Below the pieces are notes generated by a model that was not told the origin of the DNA, did no database searches, and saw only the letters and a list, made by a program, of their open reading frames with translations. The translations under genes were made by a program, and so were the position numbers. A stretch of DNA of 63,295 bases, counting the filler, from Reticulomyxa filosa (Eukaryota; Protista; Foraminifera), in the NCBI GenBank assembly GCA_000512085.1. It is 24 parts of 24 records of this genome, joined end to end, with 100 filler letters (N's around TTAATTAATTAA, not from the genome) between each part and the next. Parts side by side here need not be neighbours in the genome. Positions count along the whole stretch, not along the records: positions 34,556 to 42,669 come from ASPP01006275.1; 23 more parts are not named here. The stretch is one strand, 5' to 3'. Of the stretch, positions 2,935-63,295 are shown piece by piece (positions within the stretch are counted from its first letter, which is position 1; each line of letters starts with the position of its first letter).

Positions 2935-5616
<2,682 letters not shown>

Positions 5617-6532
5617 ATATCAAGTATAAGTACATATCGACTTTCAGACTGTTTGAAACAAACACTTCTTGCTAATCATCAACTCTTTAAAAAAACAGCA
5701 TACAGTACATAAAACTACAAGATAATTATACAACTTTTAGAATAAATATTTACCACTATGTAAAAATTTACATATTGCAGTAAGACTGCAGACATGTTGT
5801 TTTTTCTTCAAAAAGGGAAGCGGAAAGTTCCAACCCGTTAGACGAAGAAAAATAATAATATTGTTAATATATTGACTTTCTTAACTGACTTATTGTATTT
5901 TTGATATTTTATTAATGTGTAAAAAGATTTAGTTTAATTTATTTTTGTCATTTATTATATTATCGTAAATCAATTGTACTATTTTCACACTTTTTAAATA
6001 AAATTTATCCATAAGTTAGAGAAAAATATTTAATACAAAGAAAAGCTATTTGTTGGTTTATCATGTTGCAAATCAAGTTTTCAGTTTTCACCATAGAAAT
6101 GAAATAAGTTTGACAAGGAGATATTACGAATGACAACTTATAAAAAATGCTTTCACTATCACTTTTTTCTACAGCGAAGGGAAATTATTTACCACTTAAA
6201 CAACCAATCAATAAAGGACGAATAATTTTGACTGAGATATATTGCAACTGAATCAAGTTTGAATTCGTGACAATTGTGACTCTTTGATATCGTATTTCGT
6301 AGTAAATTCTTTTTTTCCGCTTCTGTCATAACAAAATGTTTTGGCTTGTTATGTTTATCATCAACCCGCTTTGTTTGAACATTTCAATTCGTTTAATCTA
6401 TCTAACACTTTGCTTGCAATCCTCCTCTTCAANNNNNNNNNNNNNNNNNNNNNNNNNNNNNNNNNNNNNNNNNNNNTTAATTAATTAANNNNNNNNNNNN
6501 NNNNNNNNNNNNNNNNNNNNNNNNNNNNNNNN

Positions 6533-25751: not shown

Positions 25752-27790
25752 CTATAATTGGCTCGATTTGTAAGGGCCTCTTGTACGCGTGTGTCGTAAC
25801 GCAAATTTCGGTTGATTGATATCAATCCATTCGTCCCAGTTAGTACTCCATCCGATAAAGTGCACTGCAACTTTTTTTTCGTTACCATTGTCTCTTGTTC
25901 CTAGCAGCCTGATATATGCTTCGTACCACTTGAGTTGAGAATCCTTTTTGATTCAAACATATGTTAAAAAAAAAGATCACCTTAATTCATTCTGTCATTA
26001 AAATGTGAAGATATACACCAAACTTGGACATCCAAAATGTCACCCACTTCAAACTGATTCCATGTTTCTACTCCTTTCACTAAAGGCCATACAAACGCGC
26101 TTCCTGGCATCGGATTGCATTTTTTTTCGACTAAAAAGACAACATTTTTGGAAAAGTGTAGATTTCCTAGAAGAGTGTGCAAATAATCGTTTGGAATCTC
26201 TACGTAGCGCGTGTGATCAACATGTTCCAAATCCTTCAAGGTCACCTGCACGTTTCGTGCATTGACACACGTATACATTGACTTAAGTTCTGCAAATGGT
26301 ACCCACAAATGTACACTAGGTGACATGACCTCCTCTTCCTTGTCAGCATCATTGTCCACAAACGTGGCCGCCACTTGTCCGAGTGAGAACAAAGTTGAGA
26401 AAGGACGCAATTCAGGATTTTGAATATCATAGCTTCCATCTGCATTTACGATTGCAAATTTTAGAATAATTGGATGTGCTTCCACACACTATTGTTTTTA
26501 TTGTCACATAGGAAAGTACTTTTTCACTAGGGATTGAAATAAAAAAAAGTACATTCGAAAAATAAAAAATGGGTTACACATTTGCGCTTCAAATTGTCGT
26601 TTGTTTTTTGCAATTGCGCAGTTTAAAATGTCGATGTTTTTTTTTTGCAAAGGTCAACGTCGGAAAAAAAAAACCCCAGACTTACGTTGGATGCAAAAAC
26701 GTTTCTGGCATATATTGGACCACCTCCGTACCAAGAAAACAATAATTTCCATTGCTCTTCTTGTAGCCACTGGTATTCTACTCCTTCTTCTAAGTCTCGT
26801 TTTAAATGGTCCATATTCTCTGGATCTGCTAATTCCGTGTTTTCAATTGGACCAGGTTTGGAAACGGCATTATCAATAAAATCGACATTCTGTAAACAAT
26901 ATAGGTCGAAATGAATGCAAGTCAAAACAAAACAATTTTTTTAAATAATTGTCTTACTTGACATAGTTCCGCGTATTTCAGCCAAGAATTGAACCATTGG
27001 CAAGAAATAGCGTACCAAGTTTCACCGACTTGAGGCTTTTTTTTGGGGATCTTTTGGAACAATTTGTATTGAACGTATGGATTTGTCTGAAAAATAAATG
27101 CAATTTTTGTTGTTTTGTTGTGCAAATAGTATACGTAAAGTTCCAAGCAAATAAACAAAGTTACTTACTCCATTGATAAGCCTGTAAATTGCAGTAAGAT
27201 TTAACGTATCCTCAAGGCCACCTTTTTTGACAGTTTGAACTTTGCAAAACGAATCTCGAACTATTTTCAATTGAGAAGGCACTTTAGAAGTATCTGGCAT
27301 GTTGTGCTCGATGTCATTGCACAAGCTTTGAGGAAGCTGTTTAATTGTGTCAACACATTGTATCAATAATTAAATAAGTTGCTATAAATACAATTCTTTC
27401 TTTTTTTTTTTTTTTTTGGTGAGAGTCACAATGGTTAAAAAAAAACATACTTGAGAGAGAATGCTTTGTGCAGCATCATAAGAACACAATGCTTCTGTCA
27501 AGAGTGTTTTTTGCGTCTTTAGAATCTCTCTCAGTGTTTCGATTTGGGTAATTCGAGTGGAAATTACAGCTACACAAAACACACTTAATAATTTACAGTT
27601 TGTTTGCGATTGTTAAACAAGTATTATTAACTCGTATCAAGATGCTCCCTTTCTCGTGCGTGATGAAGCTCCTCCGCTTCGACAATTATGTTTCTGAAAG
27701 CATTTTTTTGCTGCCAAAATTGACCACATAACGCAAAAGCAGGTTTGGAGTCACGTTTCATATCATTAAATACCTTCCCCATTTCCACTC
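25752..27790 (-). CDS. Coiled-coil + DUSP + UBL-like + Tudor-knot/chromo-barrel protein (DUSP family copy 3); 5' exons uncertain
   Basis: 'VGETWYAISCQWFNSW', 'KPGPIENTEL', 'WKLLFSWYGGGPIYAR' (DUSP); 'FEVGDILDVQ|DSQLKWYEA...VHFIGWSTNWDEWI' (chromo barrel); stop TAG at 25752-25754. Confidence 0.8.
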
Positions 27791-34555: not shown

Positions 34556-34797
34556 GGCAAAGTGGACAGATACAATTGAATCTCTTTTTCATTTTCAAAG
34601 TTTTCTGGAACTTTATGTCCGTCACGGGATTTCCCCTGCCTCACAAGCTCTCGCCATGTTTCTTTAACCACTACCCACGGGTATTGCCCTTTTTTATCTT
34701 GTGCTAGATATATCCTTCCTTGCAACGTGTTTGCCAACACTTTGGTAAATTTATAGCGGTTTGCTCCTTGTAGGTCCTCCATTTCCTCTTTCGACAT
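34556..34797 (-). CDS. Ser/Thr protein kinase N-lobe (truncated)
   Basis: 'YKFTKVLANTLQGRIYLA...VVVK...ENFENEKEI', subdomains I-III. Confidence 0.7.
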
Positions 34798-35881
34798 CGC
34801 TTTGATTTAATTAAGCAATCCTTTTCTTTATCTCCTTGACTTTTTGCACTATCCAAACGGCAAAAAACAAGAAAAGACTAAAAAAAGGAGAAATGAAACT
34901 AATTATTTGGAAGAATTAACAACAGTTTTCGTGTTTTTTAATAGGTTTTTTTTTGGAAATAGCTTTCGGTTTTCTTACAAAGTTCTGCAAGTGGAAACTT
35001 CGATTGCGATAGTTTTTGCAAGTTTTCTCGCTTCCATTTGCAAAAAGTACAAAATATTGAAACTTTTATATGTTCCGTTTATGTTTTATCATATCAGCAC
35101 CACTGCTTCGATTAAAATCCATATACCTTTGTTTTTCATTCCCAAGGAATTTTCTTCATTAAGTAAAACTGTTAGCTTTAAATAAAATTTCCAGCATGAT
35201 CGAGAAAAGTTAATTTTTTTTTCGAGCAAAAGTAATTAATTTCAAACGTAAAATTCGATTGAAAAAAACGTCTTTTTAACTTGAACAAAGGGGCTAGTTC
35301 GAAGCAATTTTATTTAAAATAAAGTGTCATACCCCATTTTGAAAAAATATGCAGTCAGGTCCAAAATTTTTATTATATATATGATTGAAATGCGCATAAT
35401 ATCGAACATTTCCAAAAAAAAAGACACGGATTTTGCTTGTAGCAGACCAGGAGAGACAAACCTGAAAAACACGAGAGGCAAAGGTAAAATTGAAAAGTCA
35501 AAGCAACATGAAAAGAAACGAAAAAAAGCAAAATTTTGGGCTATTATCAACAGAGCTGTTTTTTGTATGATATTGTTAGCAGAAATCAAAAGAAGACAAT
35601 CAAAAAATAAACTTACAAATGAAGATATGTTCGAAAAGAATTTGCACTTGCCTTTTGAACTTTGGCGACAGAGCTGTGATAATTTCCAAATTGTCGTCAA
35701 ATTTTTGTCAACAAAAGCTAGGTTGAGAGTAATATTCGATTAATTTCCTTTTTCTTTTGATATATTTTTTTTGGAATGGGAAATGATATCATATACATAT
35801 ATATGTATATGTATATATTTTTTAAATAATACTTAAGTAATGTTTTGTTTAATGAAAACAGTTTTTCAGTGTCTTTGAGCT

Positions 35882-37158
35882 ATGTCATCACCGCAAATTT
35901 ACGAAGTAGACTTTCAGGAGGAATGAAAGAAGAAAATTGCAATAGATCGAAAAATGAATCACCTAATCCTCCTCACTTGGTAATATTTGAATAGAAAAAA
36001 TATTTTTTTTTTTAGATGGATTGGATGTTTTTAAAATTTGGTAATTACATTGCTTGACAAAAAAAAAAAAAGAGAAGATATTGCAAATAAAAATTGATAG
36101 ACAGAAAAAGAAATCAAAATGATTGTTGAGAGCTGGCTTCGGATGGCGCATGTTTATTGGGGATGGATTGATGAATTCTTTCTAATAATTGGAAAATATG
36201 TTGGGTGATTGGTTTTCTTGTCATTTTTGTTTGCTCAATTTCAAATGATCTACAATATGTTTGTAACGCATTTTTAACAGGCCAAATATTTCAGAGAATT
36301 GAAGATATTTCAAGGTCATTCCAATCGTGTTACTTGTGCTCAATTTTCACCAGATGGTCAAACTATCGTATCATCTTCCAATGATCAAACAATTCGGTTA
36401 TGGGATGTAATATCGGGCCGGGAAATTCAAAAATTTGAAGGGTTGGGGTGGATATATGGAGTACAATTTTCACCAGATGGTTGTACCATTGTGTCATATT
36501 CGGAGGATGCTGCAATTCGAATATGGGATTTGAAATCTGGCTCAGAAGTTTCAAAATTGGAAGGCCATTCGGCAGTTGTAACAAAGCTCAATTTTCACCA
36601 GATGGACATGCGATTGTGTCATCTTCCTATGACAAGACTATTCGGATATGGGATTTGACAGCAGGAAAATTAGTTCGGACATTGAAAGGACATTTCAATG
36701 TTGTAACGGGGGCACAATTTTCACCAAATAGTCGGACCATTGTCTCTTCGTCATGGGACAAAACAATTCGATTGTGGGATGTGGAATCAGGAAAAGAGTT
36801 ACAAAAATTAGAGGGACATCCGACTTGGGTAAGAGGGGCACAATTTTCACCAAATGGTCGTATTGTTGTATCTTTTTCTTTTGAAACAATTCGATTATGG
36901 GATGTGGCATCAGGACGAGAAATACAAAAATTAGAAGGACATTCAGACATTGTTACTGGAGCACAATTTTTACCGGATAGTTCCACTGTTGTTTCGTGCT
37001 CAGTTGACAAAACCATCAGAATATGGGATGTAACATCAGGACAAGAAATACAAAAACTGGAAGGTCATTCAAAAGTTGTAACTGGATTGGATGTTACTCC
37101 GGATGGTGACACCATAGTGTCATCTTCAGATGATTTCACAATTCGATTGTGGGGATAG
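35882..37158 (+). CDS. WD40-repeat protein with N-terminal 'GW' module exon (36101-36199); frameshift near 36580, possibly a pseudogene
   Basis: Seven highly similar GH...FSPDG..IVSSS.DKTIRLWD repeats; phase-0 introns flank the 99-bp exon. Confidence 0.88.
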
Positions 37159-37575
37159 AATTCAATAATGCAAACAAATAAAACAAAGAATTTACAGCAA
37201 TCTTCTTTTAAGCTCAAATCACAATTGAAATCTCAGTTTGCAATCTTTTAATTGCATTCAAAGCCAAATCGTTCATGTTGGCTGCGACGGTGCCATAATA
37301 ATTACTTTTTAAATTTAATAAATCTTATTCAACACTAAACAAAATGGTACCGCAGAAAAATTGCTGATTTTTTTAATAAAATTAAGAATTGAGCAATATT
37401 TTTAAAGATTTGCAGGTAACAAGAACCATTGATGATTTTGCTTTTACTTTGTATAAATTATTTTTGAATAAGGGATTAATGTAAGAAAGTTGTACTTACT
37501 GAATGGTAAATTGTTTTCATTTGATATTGAAAATAAATTTTTTAAATGTCACAAACATTTTAAAAAAGAATCAGC

Positions 37576-38791
37576 TCATGCTTCATCCTCCGGTCGTAAG
37601 TTTTTTGCAACAGGTAACAAAAACAACCTTGTAGCTTCTTGAATGTAGCTTCGTAATAGTTTGACGTTGGGTTTTGATAACTCATTTGCCCAAAGATGTT
37701 CTTTCGAGAAATCCGAAAATACATCGTGCACGAAAAGTCCACTAATTTTGGGGAAGTTGACCAAAGACATCTGTGAGACATAATTTCAAACAAAACAAAA
37801 AAAGGCTGTTTAAATTATAAGAAAAAAAAAAGAGTGAAAAAAAACCGACCTCTCCAACTTTGGACGTGACGGAATTCAAACGATTTGCATTAAAAAACGA
37901 GTCCAAGTGCGTAAAGAATTGATCCGAGAGAATCTGATGTTGAGAAAAGATGGATTGAAATTTGGTGGCAATATCACTTCGGAGTTGTTTCAAATTATCA
38001 TCACCGGTTTTCCAATTGATAGTAACTTTTTTTTTTTGGGTGCAGTTTGATCATCGCTGCGATGTTTATTATTCTTTGCACCCATTGCACAGTTTTCAGC
38101 AAAAGCTTCGCATTTGAATTTTAATAACACGTGGCTTCCTAGCAAGCGTCGTAAGACGACACCTTCAGCGATAGTACCAGATGTGGGTTGCAGCGGCAAT
38201 TTTAATTGCTGAGGGATCGTGGAAACCAAGTGATCGACATCTACACTATCCAGCAAGTGTTGTAAAGTCCCTTTGAACAAAGGCTTCGGAAAAGCGTCAA
38301 ATTGTCCAGCATGTTCGAAAATGTGAAGACATTGTGAAAATGTCAGAAAACGTTTGCCATAGCGACGAACGGGTTTAGAAGGATCGGTGGAAGAGGATGG
38401 AATGGAGCCAGTGATAGTAGTGCCCGTGGAAGGGGCAGTGAATACAATACGAATATCAAAAGGGAAAAAATGATGATAAGGAGAATAACTCACTCCAATT
38501 TGGACGGCTTTATATTTTTTAGAGGTCACTACTCTCAAAAATTCCTCTCGTTTCTCTTTTCTTAATTCATCACGTGCCGGTGGATTGACAGTGTCACTGT
38601 CACGTTCGTAGCCAAAATTACCACCAAACAATTCTCCATACACTAATACAGCAACGCAATTGGGCTCTATATTTTGTTTGATGTACTCATAGCATTTGTT
38701 CACTCTGATTTTTCTTTTGCCATTACATCTCTCCATCCACTGTAATAGGAATCTTCATCATTTAATAAGCCATTTCGTCTATTTTTTATTT

Positions 38792-38825
<34 letters not shown>

Positions 38826-39804
38826 CTATATACATATATGTACATGCTCACCTAGCTGCAACAAAGTTTGTACCATCTGTCAAAATAGTGAAATTGGTGC
38901 CGTGCACTTTTTCACATGCCACCCATTCGACATCAGGTTCTGCGTGCCCATGTGCAATGAGATCATTTACCTCACGTTTGTTAAAGTGATTTTCAATGCT
39001 GGGGTACATGTTCCAAAATGATTTCAAAAGATCGATTCCTTCCAATTCTTTCGTTTCTATTTCTTCCTCAGTTTCTTCCGTATCTGCTTGTTTCGCCGTT
39101 GTGTGCTGTTCTGGCTTGTCCTTTTCGTCTCGAAACACCAAAATCTGTATTTGTTTATTTTTTTCCCTCTCACATTGTAACTTGAGTTCCCGTTGGATGG
39201 AAAAAAAAAAAAAAGGTAGTAGTAAACTTTTGGAATCGGATCAATGGCTCCAATCTTTATCCAGCCTGTAGAAGGAGGGAATACACTATCGTAAGGGTCG
39301 TGGGCTAGATACAGCACAGTAGTGCATGCGACAGTGGCAGAAGCCTCTTCAAGAATCACCCAAGAATGCTCGAAGCCAAATATCGATTTTATTTCGCTAT
39401 ACGTTTTGTCATTTGGCTGCGCTTTTTTAATTCGAATATGTGCCGTTCCTTGTGGAAATATTCAAACAATGTATCTTGTTTAGTTTCATATAGTCCGATC
39501 ACTCTTCCAATCCCAGCGGCTACAATTTCTGCTTTCATTGCTAATCCATTAATTTCCTTAGAAAATAATTCGGAATTTTCTTTTCTTCGCCATTCCAAAC
39601 ATTTTTTATATTGTGCCAATGGATGACTTTTGCAATTGTCCACCAGGGAATTGCATTCTTTTGCCGTTGTTGTATGTGTACGTGTGTTTTTTGCTGAGTT
39701 CTCAAAACATACCGACACACAAATTCCTTGTTCAACAAAAACAAAAAAAAAGTTTTCCGACCTTTACAATACATCTGCATCGTGTATCCGAAGAATTCAG
39801 GCAC
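37576..39804 (-). CDS. Rnl2/REL-family ATP-dependent RNA ligase with N-terminal extension, about 7 exons
   Basis: Motif I 'WVACEKVHGTNF', III 'VYGELFGG', IIIa 'FFPFDI', IV 'AEGVVLR', V 'LLKFKCEAFAE'; Rnl2 C-terminal domain 'NRLNSVTSKVGE...FPKISGLFVHDVFSDF'. Confidence 0.88.
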
Positions 39805-40214
39805 AACTCAAAAATGGCAAAATATACCAGGTAAAAGATGGCAAAGAAGATAAATTTTTAGTAAACCAGAAAAAAAGGATAAGTTTGACTCAGTTCGTTT
39901 TTGAAAAGAAGGAAAACACTTTTTAAATAGTTGGAAATATTTTTTTGCGCCATAAAAATGTGCACGGTAGCACATTGAGTAACTCACTGAAACTTGAAAA
40001 AAATAAAATGGTTATTTCTTGGATCAACGCTCTTTGTTTTTTCATTTTCTAATTTTACTTTTTGTTTTTATTGAAATTTGCTCAAAAAGGTATATTACAT
40101 CTTTTGCTTAAATTACACTTTACATCCAAATAATAAAAAATTACTAATTAATTAACAAAAAAAATTACTTCTTCCTATTGGAAATTCTTTGACTAGTAAA
40201 GGAACGTAGTAAAG

Positions 40215-42554
40215 TTATGCCCACAAATGAATAGCTCCATTGTACGATCCAGAACACAAAATATAATCATGACAGTCATCTTCATTTCGGTTATTCTGTT
40301 TATTACTTTGCAATACCGAGCATTGAAGAGAAATAATTCCGCAATCTTTATCATTCCCTTTGATAACATAAAATTGTCGATGGGTTCGAACATCCCAAAA
40401 GCGGATGGTGTTGTCTCTTGCAGCAGAACATATAAGATCTGAATTATTTTGAAAAGGTAAGTACTCGATACAATACACACAGCCAGTGTGTCCCTTGAAA
40501 ATATGAGTTTCCTCCTTCATTCGAGCATCCCACAAACGAATAGTTTTGTCATTTGACCCAGAGCATATTATTTCACTTCGTGGATATTTTACACTCCTCA
40601 CAAAGCCCGAATGGCCTTGAAAGACGGCCAATTCTTTGGCAGTTTCAACGTCCCATAAACGAACAGTATTGTCACATGCCCCAGAGCAAATGGAATATCC
40701 ACTGCCACCAATTACGCCCGGATCCTTATTACGATTGCATTCACTCTGCAATGGTGAAAATTCAACACACCAAACGCTGTTGGAATGTCTATCGAGAGCA
40801 TACAACGACTTGCAAGTTTCAATATCCCAAAGACGAATTGTATTGTCCGCTGATCCAGAACATAAGAATTGACCACCACGGAACGGTGAAAATTGGAAAC
40901 CACAGACACCATTTGAATGTCCATTCAAAATCTGTGTCTGTTTGCCAGTTTCAATATTCCAAAAGCGAATGGTTGAATCCCATGAACTAGAACAAATGGA
41001 TTTCCAATAATATGATGAAAATTTTACACAAAACACGGTACTTGAATGTCCTGTAAAGACTTGAATTTGTTCGGCTGTATCCACATCCCACAATCGAACT
41101 GTCATATCAGTTGATCCAGAGCAAAGAAGATGTCTTCCATCCAAGAACGAATATTCAATACCATACACCATGCTCGAGTGTCCATTGAATGATTTAAATG
41201 CACTGGGAGAATGTGGCAAACTAAATGTGTTTTTAGAGATTTGAAAACAAAAAGGAGGCAATTTAGATACATTATTTATTGCCTCTTTTTCTTCTTCTTT
41301 TTCATCACTTTTGATTTTTTGCAACTGCTCTCTATTTTCGTTAGCAGATGAACTGCTTGCTCCTTCCAATCCTTCCTCCCCCAAACTATCTTCTACTATT
41401 TCAATATCCGCATAACATTTCAGCAATTCTGCCTCATTATCTTGTTGGATCCTTTTCATTTCATTTTCTTTCTCCAAGAGCTGTCGCTCCTTCAGCTGAA
41501 TATCTTTCTGATTTTGTTCTATTTCTGTTCTCATAAGTTGAATTTGTTTATCTTTTGTATGCATTTGTTGGATACTCTTTTCGAGTAACTGCTTCAATTC
41601 TTCCATTTCAGTATTGACACTGTGCTATCTTATTTATACAATATATACATATATATATACATATATATACATATATATATGTATATTTTTTATGAGATAT
41701 ATCTAGTTTCAAAGCAAAAAATACCTGAAAAAAATTGGTCTTGTAAAACTGTTGCTCACATTGTTGTAATTGCTGTTTCAATTGATAGTTTTCTTTTTCC
41801 TTTCTTACATTAAGCTGCAATTCTGATTTTAATTTCTCATTTTCCAACTGCAACTGTCCCACTTGGCTCTGGTTTATTTTTATTTGTATTGTCTTTTTTA
41901 TTTATTATGGCTTTGTTATGTTGGAGATAACAACGGCCAAACTTGATATTGTTGGATAATGTGTTGCAAAGATTCGATAAATTTCGTGGCCAATTCAAAA
42001 TGCAATTTCAAATTGGAAATCAAATGCTCCTGCAATTTGTTTTCGTGACATAAATGATCACATCCAAATGGTTTAAACCAACAATCAAATAACCTCAAAG
42101 GACATGCATTCTCTAAATGGTCGGGCACCTCTCTTATCTTTCCTTTAAAATTACACATCACAGCTTTTACTATTTTTCCTTCATGTCGTCGGGTTACTAT
42201 TTGCGAATTTTGTTCAAATTGTCGTGGACATATCACACACAATTCTCCTATTTGTCGTTGCGCGAGTTTGCTTTTCGAATACAAACAATCTTCGTGGCTG
42301 TCGACTGGGCAAACATTGCGATTGTCACAGAGATATTTCCGCAAACAAGTTTCTCCAACAATCAATAATTCATCAGCATTTTCGTGCTGAAGGCAGTCCA
42401 GTTCCATCGCATTGTTTGCAACTTGTTCACAAATTAAACAAATAAAGTTGCCAATTTGTTCTTTTTGGTTTGATTGCAAAATCCAGTTTTTATCCAAGCA
42501 AGAACGCATGACAACTGCATTTGGTCTTGATTCCTTATTTTTTTCATCGTCCAT
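40215..42554 (-). CDS. RING-like/TRAF-type Zn-finger + coiled coil + WD40 protein (TRAF7-like architecture), about 3 exons
   Basis: 'FICLICEQVANNAMELDC..H...GETCL...CPVDSH', 'VICPRQF', 'CNFKGKI...HLENACPL', 'CWFKPFGC'; WD40 repeats 40215-41200. Confidence 0.88.
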
Positions 42555-42769
42555 GGCTTTTTAGAAGTATTTTTTAAAAACCTAGTTCAGAACGTGTCTT
42601 GACACTACAAGGTAAATCGAAACATATTGCCAACAGAAAAATCTGACAAGAAGCACCGTCGTAGTGGGTNNNNNNNNNNNNNNNNNNNNNNNNNNNNNNN
42701 NNNNNNNNNNNNNTTAATTAATTAANNNNNNNNNNNNNNNNNNNNNNNNNNNNNNNNNNNNNNNNNNNN

Positions 42770-52453: not shown

Positions 52454-52964
52454 AACAATTTGTTTGTTTGTTTTGAGAAAAGGATTAAGAAAGCCCTTCT
52501 TTTTTGTTTTTGTTTTTGTTTTTGAGTTGTGTTAAGTTAGAAACAAAAATGCACAACCATACTAGCACTGCCAAGTGTCTTTCTTTTCTCCTTTATCATT
52601 GCTATTTGTTGTTTACTTTTTGTTTTCTCATAGAGATTTTACTCTTTGTATTTCTTTTTTTTTTGACAAAATCGTCTGCTCCTACAAGTCAAACAATTAA
52701 ATGTTACTAAGATGTGTCACAGTATATTTGTTGTTTGCTTTTATATCACGCAAAAAAAAAAAAAAGTATTTAGCTCACTGTTGTTTATTCAAAAATCACT
52801 GATAACAGATCGGAAAGGGTGATTAGCTTATCTAAAAAAATAAATTAATAATTCATTTAGTATGGCTTGAATTTTAATTTAAACGTGTACAAAAACTGCT
52901 TCATTATTAAAACTAGTTTTTTTTGGACTGTTTTGCTACTCAAAAGTAAAACTAGTTTTTGTGA

Positions 52965-53592
52965 AAGTACCTTTTTTTAGAAGTGTACTTAGAAAGCTCA
53001 GAAGACCAAAACACGAAGGTGTGATGATCGGAACGTCACAAAAGGATGCCTATGTTGGAGATGAGGCACAAAGTAAGAGGTATTTTGCAATTAAATATCA
53101 TATTGAATACTGTACAGTCACCAGTTGGGACGATGTGGAGAAAATGTTTTGTTTTACATCGAGTTGAGGACATTAAGGAAAAATTAGCTTATGTTGTCGA
53201 AGATTACCACGCAGGATTGAAGAAAGTTGAAACATCGAATGATATTGAGAAAAACTACGAATTGACTGACGGACAAGTTATCATCATTGGCGCTGAACGA
53301 TTCAGACGCACTAAGGTATTGTTATCACCAACTTATTGGAAAGGAAGCGAGGGAATCCATAAATTGGCTTACAAAAATATCATGAAATGTGATTTGGACA
53401 TATGCCGAGATTTGTACACAACAATTGTTGTCTGGAGATAAGACTATGTTAAATAGCATTGATGTCCGTTTAAATAAGGAAATGACTACTGCCAGCATCA
53501 GAGTAAAAATTGTTGCTCTAATGAAAGAAAATACAGTATCTAGATTGTGTAAATCATTTTGGCAGCTTGTCTATGAAATCGTTTGGCTATGA
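52965..53592 (+). pseudogene. ACT: Actin pseudogene with a large internal deletion and frameshifts
   Basis: '[26 protein letters not shown]', 'WDDVEK', then a jump to 'DIKEKLAYV', 'YELTDGQVIIIGAERFR', 'IMKCDLDICRDLY'. Confidence 0.92.
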
Positions 53593-54127
53593 AGCAAAAT
53601 TTTAAAAATACTACACGTTGACATAAAATGAACATCTTAAAAATAAAAACATACTAAAATTTGTTGATTTAAATTTTTTACAATTAACGTAAACTTAGAT
53701 TATGCAAACTACGTTAAAAAAGTAATTAGTCAGATCATAGTTACAATCACATCTTAAACTGTATTTCAGAGAATATTCATTGATAATTTTGGAAATATTT
53801 TCAGTCTACAAAAAATGATGCAAAGTAAACTTTAAAGTTGATAATGACATAGCAAAACTAAAACCGATAAATGTATCATTCATCAACAACAAAAATCTTT
53901 GTTTAAAACCTTTTGGACATGAAACTAACTTGTCATAACATGCACAATCTAAATCCTTTTTTAAAATTGTTCTTTGAAAAGAATAGATATGTTCAATAAT
54001 ATTGTAATATTGTCGAAGTACTTTTGACAACGTATTCATAGCTTTGACATAAAAAAGCTCACGCAATTTTTTTTATCTATCATCCCACATAATCTAAACA
54101 GAGTCCCGAAAGAATGGCCACTTTTTG

Positions 54128-55505
54128 CAATGAAAAACAAACATCAGTACAACAAGAATTGGTATGCTTCATTTCAAGCTTTCTGAAAGAGGTTATCTTT
54201 AAGTTTTATTATACTTATTGTATGTGACTTGATGAATTAGTCAGAAGAAGAAGCCCAAATAATTATTCAACATTGGATTCGAACATTACACATTAGATTA
54301 GGATGGATCCAAGATTTTGACATACTTGTTGGAAACTATGTTATGTTTTTTATTCGAGTTTCGTTCAATATTTTCAAATATTTTTTGCTTTTATTATTTT
54401 TTATACAGGCAACTACATCCTTCATGCTTGAATCGTTTTGTTCAAAGTCTAAATTAATTAAAACATTCATTGGACACATTCGATTTGTAAACAGTATTGA
54501 CTGTTCGACATTTGATAATTGTCAATGTATTTGTTCGGGATCGTATGATAAAACAGTTCGTGTATGGAATATAGAGACCAACGAACAAATTCAATTATTC
54601 AATGGACATTCAAGTTATGTATATTGCGTGAAATTTTCATCATATCATTATCACAATAATCGTAGGAATGTCATTTGTTCTTCATCAGCTGACAAAACGA
54701 TTCGATTTTGGGATATCAAAGATAATCAACAATTCCAAATATTCAATGGACACACAAATGGCGTTAATGGTATTGAATTTTCACCATTTAACAATGGCCG
54801 ATATTTGTGTTCTGGATCTGATGACAAAACAATTTGTCTATGGGATGTTGAAACATCCGAGTCATTACATGTTTTCAATGGACATGAAAATAATGTTTGT
54901 TGTGTGGCTATTTCACCATTGCAAAGCAATAATAGAAATAATAATGATAATAAAAGTAATAGTATTGGAGTGATTGGTGGTAATGGATATAATATTTGTT
55001 CTGGATCAATGGATAAAACCATTCGTATATGGGATATTGAAACAGCTAAGCAATTACTTGATTCAAAGGACATGAACATTGGATTAGCGTTGTAAAATAT
55101 GGATCAAATGAATTAGGAATTAATGGTGGCGCAAATACAATATTATCTGGATCAAATGATTCCAGTGTTCGTCTGTGGGATATTCGATCTGGCCAACAAA
55201 TTCAAGTATTTAATGGACATAAATATTCTGTGTATGTTGTTGAATATTCACCATTTGTAGTAAATAATATTGAAATTGGTGGTAATTCAAATGTGATATG
55301 TTCTGGATCATATGATAACACAATTCGATTTTGGGATATTCGATCAAATAAGAAGCAATTGTATGTAATAAAAGGAGATTATAAAGATGATGGAATATTA
55401 TGTCTTAAATTCTTCCAATTGAAAAAAAACAGAAAAGGCAATAATGATTGTGGTATTAATTTATGCTATGGTTCAAACAATGGCCCAATTCGCATTTGGG
55501 GTTAG
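54128..55505 (+). CDS. WD40 protein with N-terminal 'GW' module exon (54241-54339); frameshift near 55060
   Basis: ICSGS.DKTIR.WD repeats, 'VIGGNGY', 'LCYGSNNGPIRIWG*'; paralogous to the propeller at 40215-41200. Confidence 0.88.
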
Positions 55506-60575: not shown

Positions 60576-62234
60576 TCAATGCATTTTGTAACGGGAGAGG
60601 GAAAGTTCTAATTTTACACACGCAAACAAAACAGTGTCGTCTGATTTTGTGTGTTGATTATTATTTCCTGAATAATGAAGACCATTTTCCACACAAGCAG
60701 TTTTCACACTTTTGAGTGGCTTTGTAGAAATTTTCTGTCGCAGTTTTGTTTGAGCTACATTACACTGTATCATGTATAGTTATCGTGAGATAGAGAATCA
60801 GAACCTTGAATTTTCCTGGCCTGCATTTCATCAAACCTTGTTAACCCCTCAAACATTTCTTCAAACTTTGGGAAATTGGGGTAATCACTTTTCCATATCT
60901 TAATGCCGCCTGTAGCAAAATTTAGATTATACAACATTGTACTTGTGGAGGAGTAATATATGTATTGATTGAAACAATCTTAACAAGGACGCCAATAAGC
61001 AGATGCAACATTTTTATTTTCTGGTTTCCGTTTTGTGCGAATGAAATACAAGATCAAGTTGTTTTTTTGCGATTGTAATTTTTGGTTTTGCAAGGATTGC
61101 AATGCTGGCACAGCCCCAGCAAACTTTAGATAAGGCTGTTTGTGAGATGACAAACCGAACACAGTCGGTTTGAGAAAGTGTCCAATGAAAGCATAAAAAT
61201 GAAATTAACTGAGCCGTATGCTCGGAATAATATCCGACAAAATTCTTGCCGTTCGGTATAAGGCCGTTTATACATTGGTTTGGAGCCAATAGCCCAAGCG
61301 TCGAAAATGTGATACACAGTGCATTCTCCTTGTGATTCTTTTGTTTCTAGCACTTTAATGCAATCCACAATACTGTCATTGGGCAATCGCACTTCTCTGT
61401 TTGTGACCGGAGTACATGGCAATGGGATATTTGGATCTGATAGTTCGTGTCTCATTTCGTAGAGTCCATGCTGACTCCGAATCAGCGTTACCCACTCTGG
61501 AGTATCACGTCGATTTGGCCAAGGAAACGCAATCACAAACCAACATCCACGCAATGGATATCGAAGAAAGTCGGATTGTTTATCTTTGGTATCGATATCA
61601 CGCTTTGGTAAGGATTGTGAATGGTTCGATTGCATTTGAAGATATATATATATATTTGTATATGCATATGTGTATAATGAAAATGATAAAAGAAACAAAG
61701 AAATACAATAAAAAATTTTCCTCCAAACTTTGTGAACTTTCGTTTTGGTTTTCTGAATTTCAAAGTTAATTCGATCCAACACTTCCTTACCATGTGGTGT
61801 TCCTTGCATAAGCGTGTAAGCGGGTCGATACGCGGACGAGTTGAATTCTGGCGCGTTGTAATCGGGACGATTCGTAACAAAGCGATGGCCAAATTCAGGA
61901 TCGCGAATAATTCGAAATTTGCCTTCATCCGTTTTGAACCAGTAGTTTAAGGCTTGCAATCGAATGGATTCCTGATTGCAAGTTCGAAGTGTTTTATCTT
62001 CCACGTATTTTTTAACGCGTTTCAGATGACGAATTTGCTTTGCAATATGCATTTCATTGTATTGCTTAATCCATGAAATGAAGCCAGTATCCATTTCCGA
62101 GATAGGGATCAGTGGACACAACTCACGACCATCTTCATCTTTTTCAATTTTTATCACGTTGGATGACTGCATGCCATTGTTATCATTGCCATTATTGTTG
62201 CCATTTGCATTCATCATACTGTCATTATCATTGC

Positions 62235-62285
<51 letters not shown>

Positions 62286-63205
62286 GATTATAGCCGTGGT
62301 TGTAATTGTAATTGTAGTTGTGATAACTGTTACTGTTGTTTTCGTTGTTATGACTATTGCCATTGTTCGCATTGCTGTTGTCCATTCTCCCATTTTCCAT
62401 GATCGGATTGGATGAAGTCGAGCCATTTTCTTTCTTCAATTGCACTTGCTTTAATTCATTGATCGTGTTGTTCATGTTGTACAAATGTGTCAATATGTCG
62501 TGTTGTGAAAATTCAACGCCATTGTTTGTCGTGGTGAGTTGGTTGGACAATTTGAATCCAATGCAGACAATGTATCTAACATGTTATAATGATTGCATTC
62601 TATTTGACATATACAAAATATATACATATACAAAAATATATATACATATGTATATATATATATGTATGTACATATATCAAATCTGAGTTTTTTAACCTTT
62701 CCGAATTGGCAGGTCTTGATTGATTGGGTTTGATAAGTCCAATTTTATCAAAATAAATGCGCAAGATGTAAATGAGACTGACAGTGAAGGGATGAAAGCA
62801 ATCGAACAATTTGCAGACAAAGACGCCACCTTGTCTCAAGATGCTCATGGCACATAGGAATTGACATAAGATCAGCTGTCTGGATAGCAGTTCTTGGCTA
62901 TTGTAATCTTCGGACACGTTAAACCCGCCATCGGCCATGACGACATGAACTCCGTTAATGGTCTGTCGCAACACGCGTTCGCGGAAATGCCACAAGTTTT
63001 CATTCTTTGTAATATCGCCAGTGTTATCTGCGCCGTATTCGCAATTGAAGTTATCCACCGGAGCATTGCTATTGAACTTGCCCAATCGAAAGTCGTTTTC
63101 GTCTTTTAATGTGAAGCCCCATCCGCGGCATTGCCACGTGTTGACATGCAAGTAGTACTCACTAAACCCACCAGGACCGGCGCAAATATCGGCGAATAAG
63201 ATCAA
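60576..63205 (-). CDS. CMTR1: Cap-specific mRNA (nucleoside-2'-O)-methyltransferase 1, 5'-partial; 3' exons below about 61200 uncertain
   Basis: 'FADICAGPGGFSEY', 'GFTLK', 'GDIT', 'VMADGGF', 'QLILCQF', 'FVCKLFD', 'KPNQSRPANSER'; downstream GTase-like 'YHIFDA...PYTER'; poly-Asn insert 62232-62285. Confidence 0.93.
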
Positions 63206-63295
63206 CTGTTTTATTCATTCATATGTGAAAGCCAGAGTTACAATAATTTTTTCATTATCATAAAAAGAGGAGGGAAATAAATAAATCAATAAATC

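Follow-up and report, generated by a model that had tools for sequence, protein, structure and literature searches.

An Rnl2-family RNA ligase gene of the foraminifer Reticulomyxa filosa with a DENR_N-like cysteine module at its N-terminus

Three-step sealing of nicks was described for the RNA ligase T4 Rnl2 (PMC3884662, PMC4408790), and according to the first source no role is known for T4 Rnl2 itself. Similarly, a study on Diplonema states that Rnl2 ligases have no known role outside kinetoplastid editing (PMC4599027). Nuclear genes of this family are nevertheless found in other protists: five Rnl2 members are encoded by Naegleria gruberi (PMC4408790), a single one, DpRNL, with a short and unrecognisable C-terminus, was described in Diplonema (PMC4599027), and anaerobic ciliates harbour laterally acquired Rnl2 (PMC13198582). 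The second described system with relevance to the locus presented here is DENR (Tma22). Via contacts at E42, Y43 and Y46, its residues 24-51 bind MCTS1; its function requires zinc, and as a dimer the two proteins bind tRNA (PMC6013234). MCTS1 in turn contacts helix h24 of the 40S subunit (PMC7114459).

Gene structure and ligase domains

The ligase gene is located on the minus strand of a contig of 8,114 bases, which corresponds to positions 34556-42669 of the window, the whole stretch of 63,295 nt of R. filosa DNA that was analysed. Since its neighbours on this contig are a TRAF zinc-finger gene and two genes for WD40 proteins, the ligase gene is embedded in eukaryotic nuclear DNA. In line with this, the proposal of an earlier note that it is a domesticated nuclear gene is supported by its introns, by these neighbours, by a paralog in which one intron appears to be at the same position, and by a Bolivina protein in the same clade. 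The earlier note had placed the gene at 37576..39804. The stop codon, TGA at 37578-37576, was confirmed, but position 39804 is a GTG within an open frame and the first ATG is at 39780. Judged from the sequence, this ATG is likely to be the start codon, and an additional 5' exon is conceivable.

The reading frame is restored by three introns with GT-AG borders, which are 83, 73 and 79 nt long. Intron 1 (39145..39227, GT..CAG) separates the N-terminal beta module from the first ligase exon, intron 2 (38779..38851, 73 nt) interrupts the nucleotidyltransferase part and intron 3 (37771..37849, GT..CAG) the C-terminal domain. The introns had been described as host-style (TA)n introns; three of them are clear and a fourth is uncertain, but the (TA)n tract was found in only one of the four, the 73-nt intron 2. 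The uncertain intron 0 (39658..39761, GT..AAG, 104 nt) would yield the cysteine pattern C-x2-C-x6-C-x10-C, in which the first Cys of the zinc module is contributed by exon 1 (39762..39780), beginning with the putative start at 39780. Two other acceptors, at 39727 (35 nt) and 39694 (68 nt), are also in frame. Profile scores do not separate the three acceptors, and the single matching contig retains 39729-39658.

The exon at 38852..39144 encodes an acidic linker, the sequence YPSIEN and motif I with the catalytic lysine (EKVHG at 38913-38899). It is followed by an exon (37850..38778) with the equivalent of T4 R55, motif III (GELF, 38637-38626), motif IIIa (FD at 38460), motif IV (EGVV at 38166), motif V (LKFK at 38124), a linker and the beginning of the C-terminal domain, including the R266 equivalent at approximately 37882. 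The last exon (37576..37770) contains the remaining C-terminal domain with the D292 equivalent at approximately 37725 and the stop codon. Thus all five nucleotidyltransferase motifs claimed before were found. The family profile TIGR02307 (RNA_lig_RNL2) matches exon pieces with E values of 7.5e-12 and 1.6e-8, the latter in the motif I exon. The Rnl2-type C-terminal domain, also claimed before, is recognised by PF18043 (T4_Rnl2_C) on two 3' pieces with E values of 7e-4 and, in the last exon, 0.015, each below the cut-off, which relatives exceed; the equivalents of R266 and D292 are kept.

In the alignment with T4 Rnl2 the residues E34, K35, H37, G38, N40, R55, E99, F119, D120, E204, K225, K227, R266 and D292 are the same in both proteins, with R in place of K209. 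Besides K35, R55, R266 and D292, the other positions are important according to mutagenesis work on the T4 enzyme. K35, R55 and the R266-D292 bridge are named Rnl2 residues in the Diplonema study (PMC4599027). The best match of the window ligase among PDB sequences is REL1, and T4 Rnl2 was also matched. For the fold we relied on the intact relative P0124, the structure model of which has a pLDDT mostly above 90 from residue 150 on. Its top five Foldseek matches are T4 Rnl2 (E 1e-17) and REL1 (6e-16), with Rnl5, Rnl3 and Rnl1 ranking behind them. By its motifs, its C-terminal domain and, in the relative P0124, its fold, the ligase is a member of the Rnl2 family.

The window gene thus shares with T4 Rnl2 (gp24.1, rnlB; TIGR02307, PF09414 and PF18043; PDB 2HVR) the five motifs and the R266/D292 pair, and the fold of T4 Rnl2 is the same as that of P0124. 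In contrast to the phage gene, it is eukaryotic and intron-containing, has an N-terminal extension of about 190 residues with a cysteine and a beta module, carries insertions after motifs III and IIIa, and contains frame breaks. With kinetoplastid REL1 and REL2 (PDB 1XDN) it has in common the context YSP-x-H-x-F-x2-FD and EGVV; it differs from them by the lack of an evident mitochondrial presequence.

Several other features were observed in the window. At 3976-5712 there is an AdoHcyase (SAH hydrolase) pseudogene, disrupted by frame breaks and in-frame stops, and at 52900-53700 an actin copy that has decayed and likewise contains stops and frame breaks. WD40 genes at 36278-37158 and 54241-55505 contain a one-base frame break each. 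At 61126-63214, on another contig than the ligase, an FtsJ-type methyltransferase is followed by a region with resemblance to the cap methyltransferase CMTR1. The contig at 48708-50798 has a GC content of about 70% and a 465-aa ORF without Pfam match at 1e-5, which presumably resembles a bacterial IS transposase; this contig is likely to be a bacterial contamination of the assembly. Finally, the ORFs at 3033-3467 and 25982-26488 are similar to each other, with common HLW.PF.E and F.WPLVKG stretches and without Pfam match, and are a repeated family without a name.

The N-terminal cysteine and beta modules

The new part of this gene is its N-terminus, in which a DENR_N-like cysteine module and a beta module are fused to Rnl2. 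An N-terminal module with the pattern W.I...LY....PPSTGW had been noted before and is indeed present, with PPSTGW at 39278-39261. This beta-rich module (39228..39540) has no Pfam name, is split by the first frame break and follows the pattern G-x-G-x-Y ... W-x-I ... Y ... PP-x3-W ... G-x2-P-x-P. It is homologous to the corresponding parts of P0124, P0125 and P0196, a score reached by none of 2000 shuffled sequences. P0124 and P0125, which are open frames of metagenomic origin, harbour the cysteine module, the beta module and the ligase in one polypeptide, and P0196 has the beta module only, without a DENR_N match.

The cysteine module upstream of PPSTGW, which is absent from the earlier note, resembles DENR_N at the sequence level. 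Its exon with three Cys (39560..39657) has DENR_N (PF21023) as its only Pfam match, a weak one with an E value of 0.051-0.11. The better matches are those of the intact relatives P0125 (E 1.3e-5) and P0124 (3.1e-3), and the window exon aligns to P0125 at E 7e-6. In bits, PF21023 gives 13.7 for the window, 17.5 for P0124 and 25.1 for P0125; since none of them reaches the curated cut-off of 25.3, we call the module DENR-like. DENR_N was found in 3 of the 49 aligned sequences and is, besides the two ligase families, the only family with more than one member there. When the window was searched in six frames (2,013 segments) with a profile built from P0124, P0125 and P0196 alone, two segments stood out, both belonging to the ligase gene, with E values of 6e-4 and 1.3e-3, followed by the next segment at 0.59. 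The shuffle test of the cysteine part against P0124 was marginal, with the score reached by 93 of 2000 shuffles.

Like DENR, the module is predicted to have a Cys-x2/3-Cys-x6-Cys arrangement followed by a helix with the fourth Cys. The spacing is x2, x6 and x10 in the window copy if intron 0 is spliced, x3, x6 and x10 in P0125, and x2, x6 and x8 in DENR; thus the window copy differs from DENR by 10 instead of 8 residues before the last Cys, and by a ligase replacing SUI1 as the fusion partner. The first Cys depends on the putative AAG-ending intron 0, which is not favoured by the profile and is unspliced in the matching contig. At the DENR contact E42-Y43-C44-x-Y46, P0124 and P0125 read E-Y-C-x-F, whereas in the window copy the positions of E42, Y43 and Y46 are D, N and S, so that the MCTS1-contact residues are lost there. 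P0124 and P0125 are the more plausible candidates for MCTS1 docking.

Among 10,612 proteins and locus frames the N-terminal profile had no match beyond its three source proteins, and against PDB chains, DENR structures included, no match was obtained at E values up to 10. The word-based search with the beta module had no match, and neither had the metagenome scan with P0125; the scan with the alignment A4 returned only distant Rnl2 loci with 29-35% identity (80 kept of 436). Structure prediction of the N-terminal modules from a five-row alignment with AlphaFold resulted in a pLDDT of 42, and residues 36-136 of the full model are below 50. Look-alikes of the P0125 beta module in the ESM Atlas (0.90) are hypothetical proteins without a common Pfam family, the top three coming from bacteria, haptophytes and diatoms. 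SH3-like leads for a 65-aa piece of the window were discarded, as their scores in the ESM Atlas were under 0.9. A fusion between DENR and an RNA ligase was described in none of the publications found, and reviews on RNA repair may list such fusions.

Relatives of the ligase

Using the largest open piece as a query against 1.84 billion representatives, we obtained 79 matches. Beyond the window's own fragment the best one is R. filosa ETO09630.1 (P0122; 43% identity), followed by ENA metagenome proteins. ETO09630.1 is annotated as mitochondrial RNA editing ligase 1, a label that is likely to rest on similarity. It contains a YIYIYI-containing insert exactly at the protein position of intron 2, which suggests that this intron is common to both genes and was left unspliced in the model of the paralog. 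The P0122 model, with its apparent retained (TA)n intron, may in addition be truncated at the 5' end.

For phylogenetic analysis we selected rows with motif I, motif IV and at least 300 aa. This was passed by 170 sequences, P0152 and P0176 were added by hand, and the trees were calculated from subsets with 77, 95 and 33 rows. ETO09630.1 is the sister of the window sequence (99/95). The surrounding clade, which was defined after the first tree had been seen, comprises 8 rows at 99/98, or 11 rows at an SH-aLRT of 99 in a quick tree. Its named members are Reticulomyxa P0122 and Bolivina argentea P0152, and from these two we infer that the clade is foraminiferan. The clade members P0123, P0128, P0129, P0133, P0137 and P0152 are without the N-terminal module, and in P0122 no more than a PP..W remnant is left of the beta module. 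Since most members lack it, the N-terminal module is dispensable.

No viral donor was seen within the clade, into which none of the 30 viral rows (taken from 47 ORFs of 57 loci) falls. The REL of Angomonas (P0176) is outside the clade in three trees, but in the AU test, which relied on this single and partial REL row, a clade held together with it was not rejected (p-AU 0.101).

The earlier note had stressed the novelty of an Rnl2 ligase in a non-kinetoplastid protist. This does not hold, since the family is already present in Naegleria, Diplonema, ciliates and in the annotated Reticulomyxa paralog, and further named database matches include Balamuthia, Jimgerdemannia, Leptophrys, Colponema and Bolivina. 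Biochemical characterisation was shown for none of these cited or database proteins, and none of the matches listed for foraminifera or Reticulomyxa RNA ligase is a publication on this clade. The five Naegleria genes, DpRNL, the ciliate Rnl2 and ETO09630.1 are likewise nuclear Rnl2 genes outside kinetoplastids; in contrast to the window gene, no description of a DENR_N-like module was found for any of them. A further case in which an Rnl2 of eukaryote-like type is combined with a module related to tRNA is the JGI protein P0157. Its ligase, C-terminal domain included, follows a domain of the tRNA-His guanylyltransferase Thg1 (PF04446, E 7e-10).

Frame breaks and proposed function

The gene had been described as intact and full-length. 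However, as assembled it needs three frame switches, and at each of them it is one base short. Break 1 (39423..39452) is best placed at 39452-39443, the best of 13 switch points scored, with the A6 run at 39428-39423 being 7 bits lower. An 85-nt intron from 39502 was rejected as an explanation of this break, as it would remove the conserved G-x-Y motif. Break 2 is located in an A5 run (38709..38713), to which a gap-free alignment with relatives assigns it, and break 3 in an A11 run (38027..38037), for which an in-frame GT..AAG intron from 38090 or 38081 to 38026 (65 or 56 nt) is an alternative. The public annotation lists the stretch of 248 aa from break 2 to break 3 as a separate protein, P0121. 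If the breaks are read through, with X inserted, 622 residues without in-frame stop are obtained.

We consider it an even bet that the three breaks are assembly or sequencing errors. Homopolymer runs of five or more make up 3.9% of the 1,866 exonic bases, and thus the placement of the breaks is not uniform. This placement does not decide between error and pseudogene, since both sequencing errors and natural slippage favour runs. Against an assembly error, the three neighbouring genes contain 17 runs of at least five identical bases that all seem to be free of breaks, the best position of break 1 is not in a long run, and decayed gene copies exist elsewhere in the window. Among the neighbours a single break was found, in the left WD40 gene, apparently at a 3-A run. 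It is a serious possibility, to which we incline less than to an error, that the window copy is a recent pseudogene and that the working enzyme is the paralog P0122 or another copy. Three breaks in 1,866 exonic bases, compared to what appears to be a single one in the three neighbouring genes with their approximately 2,860 bases, would fit this explanation, as would the existence of the paralog, the decayed AdoHcyase and actin copies with their stops and frame breaks, and the erosion of the MCTS1-contact residues relative to P0124 and P0125. On the other hand, 622 codons are free of nonsense, the catalytic positions and the splice sites are kept, and every break is a loss of one base, with two or three of them at A-runs.

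It is very improbable that the breaks are real and bypassed in the RNA by cryptic splicing or recoding, which would result in a shortened ligase from which the core of the beta module is missing. This idea comes from one contig found in X1 and X2, two runs of one study (three runs, none of them RNA) labelled as a synthetic metagenome, which perhaps derive from the same assembly. The contig matches 39402-39729 without differences, and coverage of the gene is limited to this segment. Its 15-letter loose end, at 39250-39264, joins 39403 to 39265 and thereby passes break 1 in frame, the skipped segment of 137 nt (39402-39266) is bounded by GT..AG, and break 3 could be avoided by the in-frame GT..AAG introns mentioned above. 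However, the short side of the join consists of the 15 letters only, nothing comparable was found for break 2, and X1 and X2 were possibly simulated from predicted coding sequences. Moreover, the skipped segment has a GC content of 0.46, compared to 0.14-0.36 for the introns, and codes for conserved residues. Because the beta module has its conserved core in this segment, the join was likely simulated from a predicted coding sequence.

With the breaks regarded as likely sequencing errors, we tentatively propose that the gene encodes a nuclear ATP-dependent Rnl2 ligase which seals nicks in the cytosol and possibly docks on the ribosome. By analogy to the chemistry of T4 Rnl2 and REL, the lysine would be adenylylated, AMP would be transferred to the 5'-phosphate, and the RNA 3'-OH would attack. 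The C-terminal domain would favour nicks in duplexes, and the substrates would be nicks with 3'-OH and 5'-phosphate in structured cytosolic RNA. Breaks carrying 2',3'-cyclic phosphate and 5'-OH would require separate end-healing enzymes, none of which was found on the 8,114-bp contig. The cysteine module may bind zinc and dock on MCTS1 in the manner of DENR residues 24-51. With MCTS1 bound to helix h24 of the 40S subunit and to tRNA, this would place the ligase where broken tRNA, mRNA and rRNA accumulate during recycling.

A different site of action, with the enzyme serving as a REL-like ligase for editing or trans-splicing of split or frameshifted mitochondrial transcripts, is in our opinion rather improbable. 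It would be in agreement with REL1 as the best PDB sequence match, with the label of the paralog and with the joint clade with Angomonas REL left unrejected in the AU test (p 0.10), and foraminiferan mitochondria were described to have a split nad1, fragmented rRNA and, in Miliolida, a conserved cox1 frameshift (PMC10127745). However, in the trees the clade does not group with REL, and what is found at the N-terminus is a module of a folded type that is shared with relatives, with cysteines as in a translation factor of the cytosol, and not an obvious presequence; according to a crude residue count, five of the first 40 residues are acidic. Furthermore, Diplonema Rnl2 shows that family membership does not equal editing (PMC4599027). 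Where foraminiferan genes are labelled as mitochondrial RNA editing ligases, this may reflect mere similarity, and the public gene model at the window locus is a fragment.

For the cytosolic ligase proposed above, the fusion to a DENR-type module names a concrete candidate partner, MCTS1, and a place for Rnl2. It is tempting to speculate, by analogy to DENR, that its MCTS1-binding zinc finger was grafted onto a foraminiferan Rnl2, giving an RNA repair enzyme coupled to ribosome recycling, although we regard this as unlikely. If true, it would mean that MCTS1 swaps its SUI1-bearing partner for a ligase by which nicks in tRNA, mRNA or rRNA are closed again on the 40S subunit.
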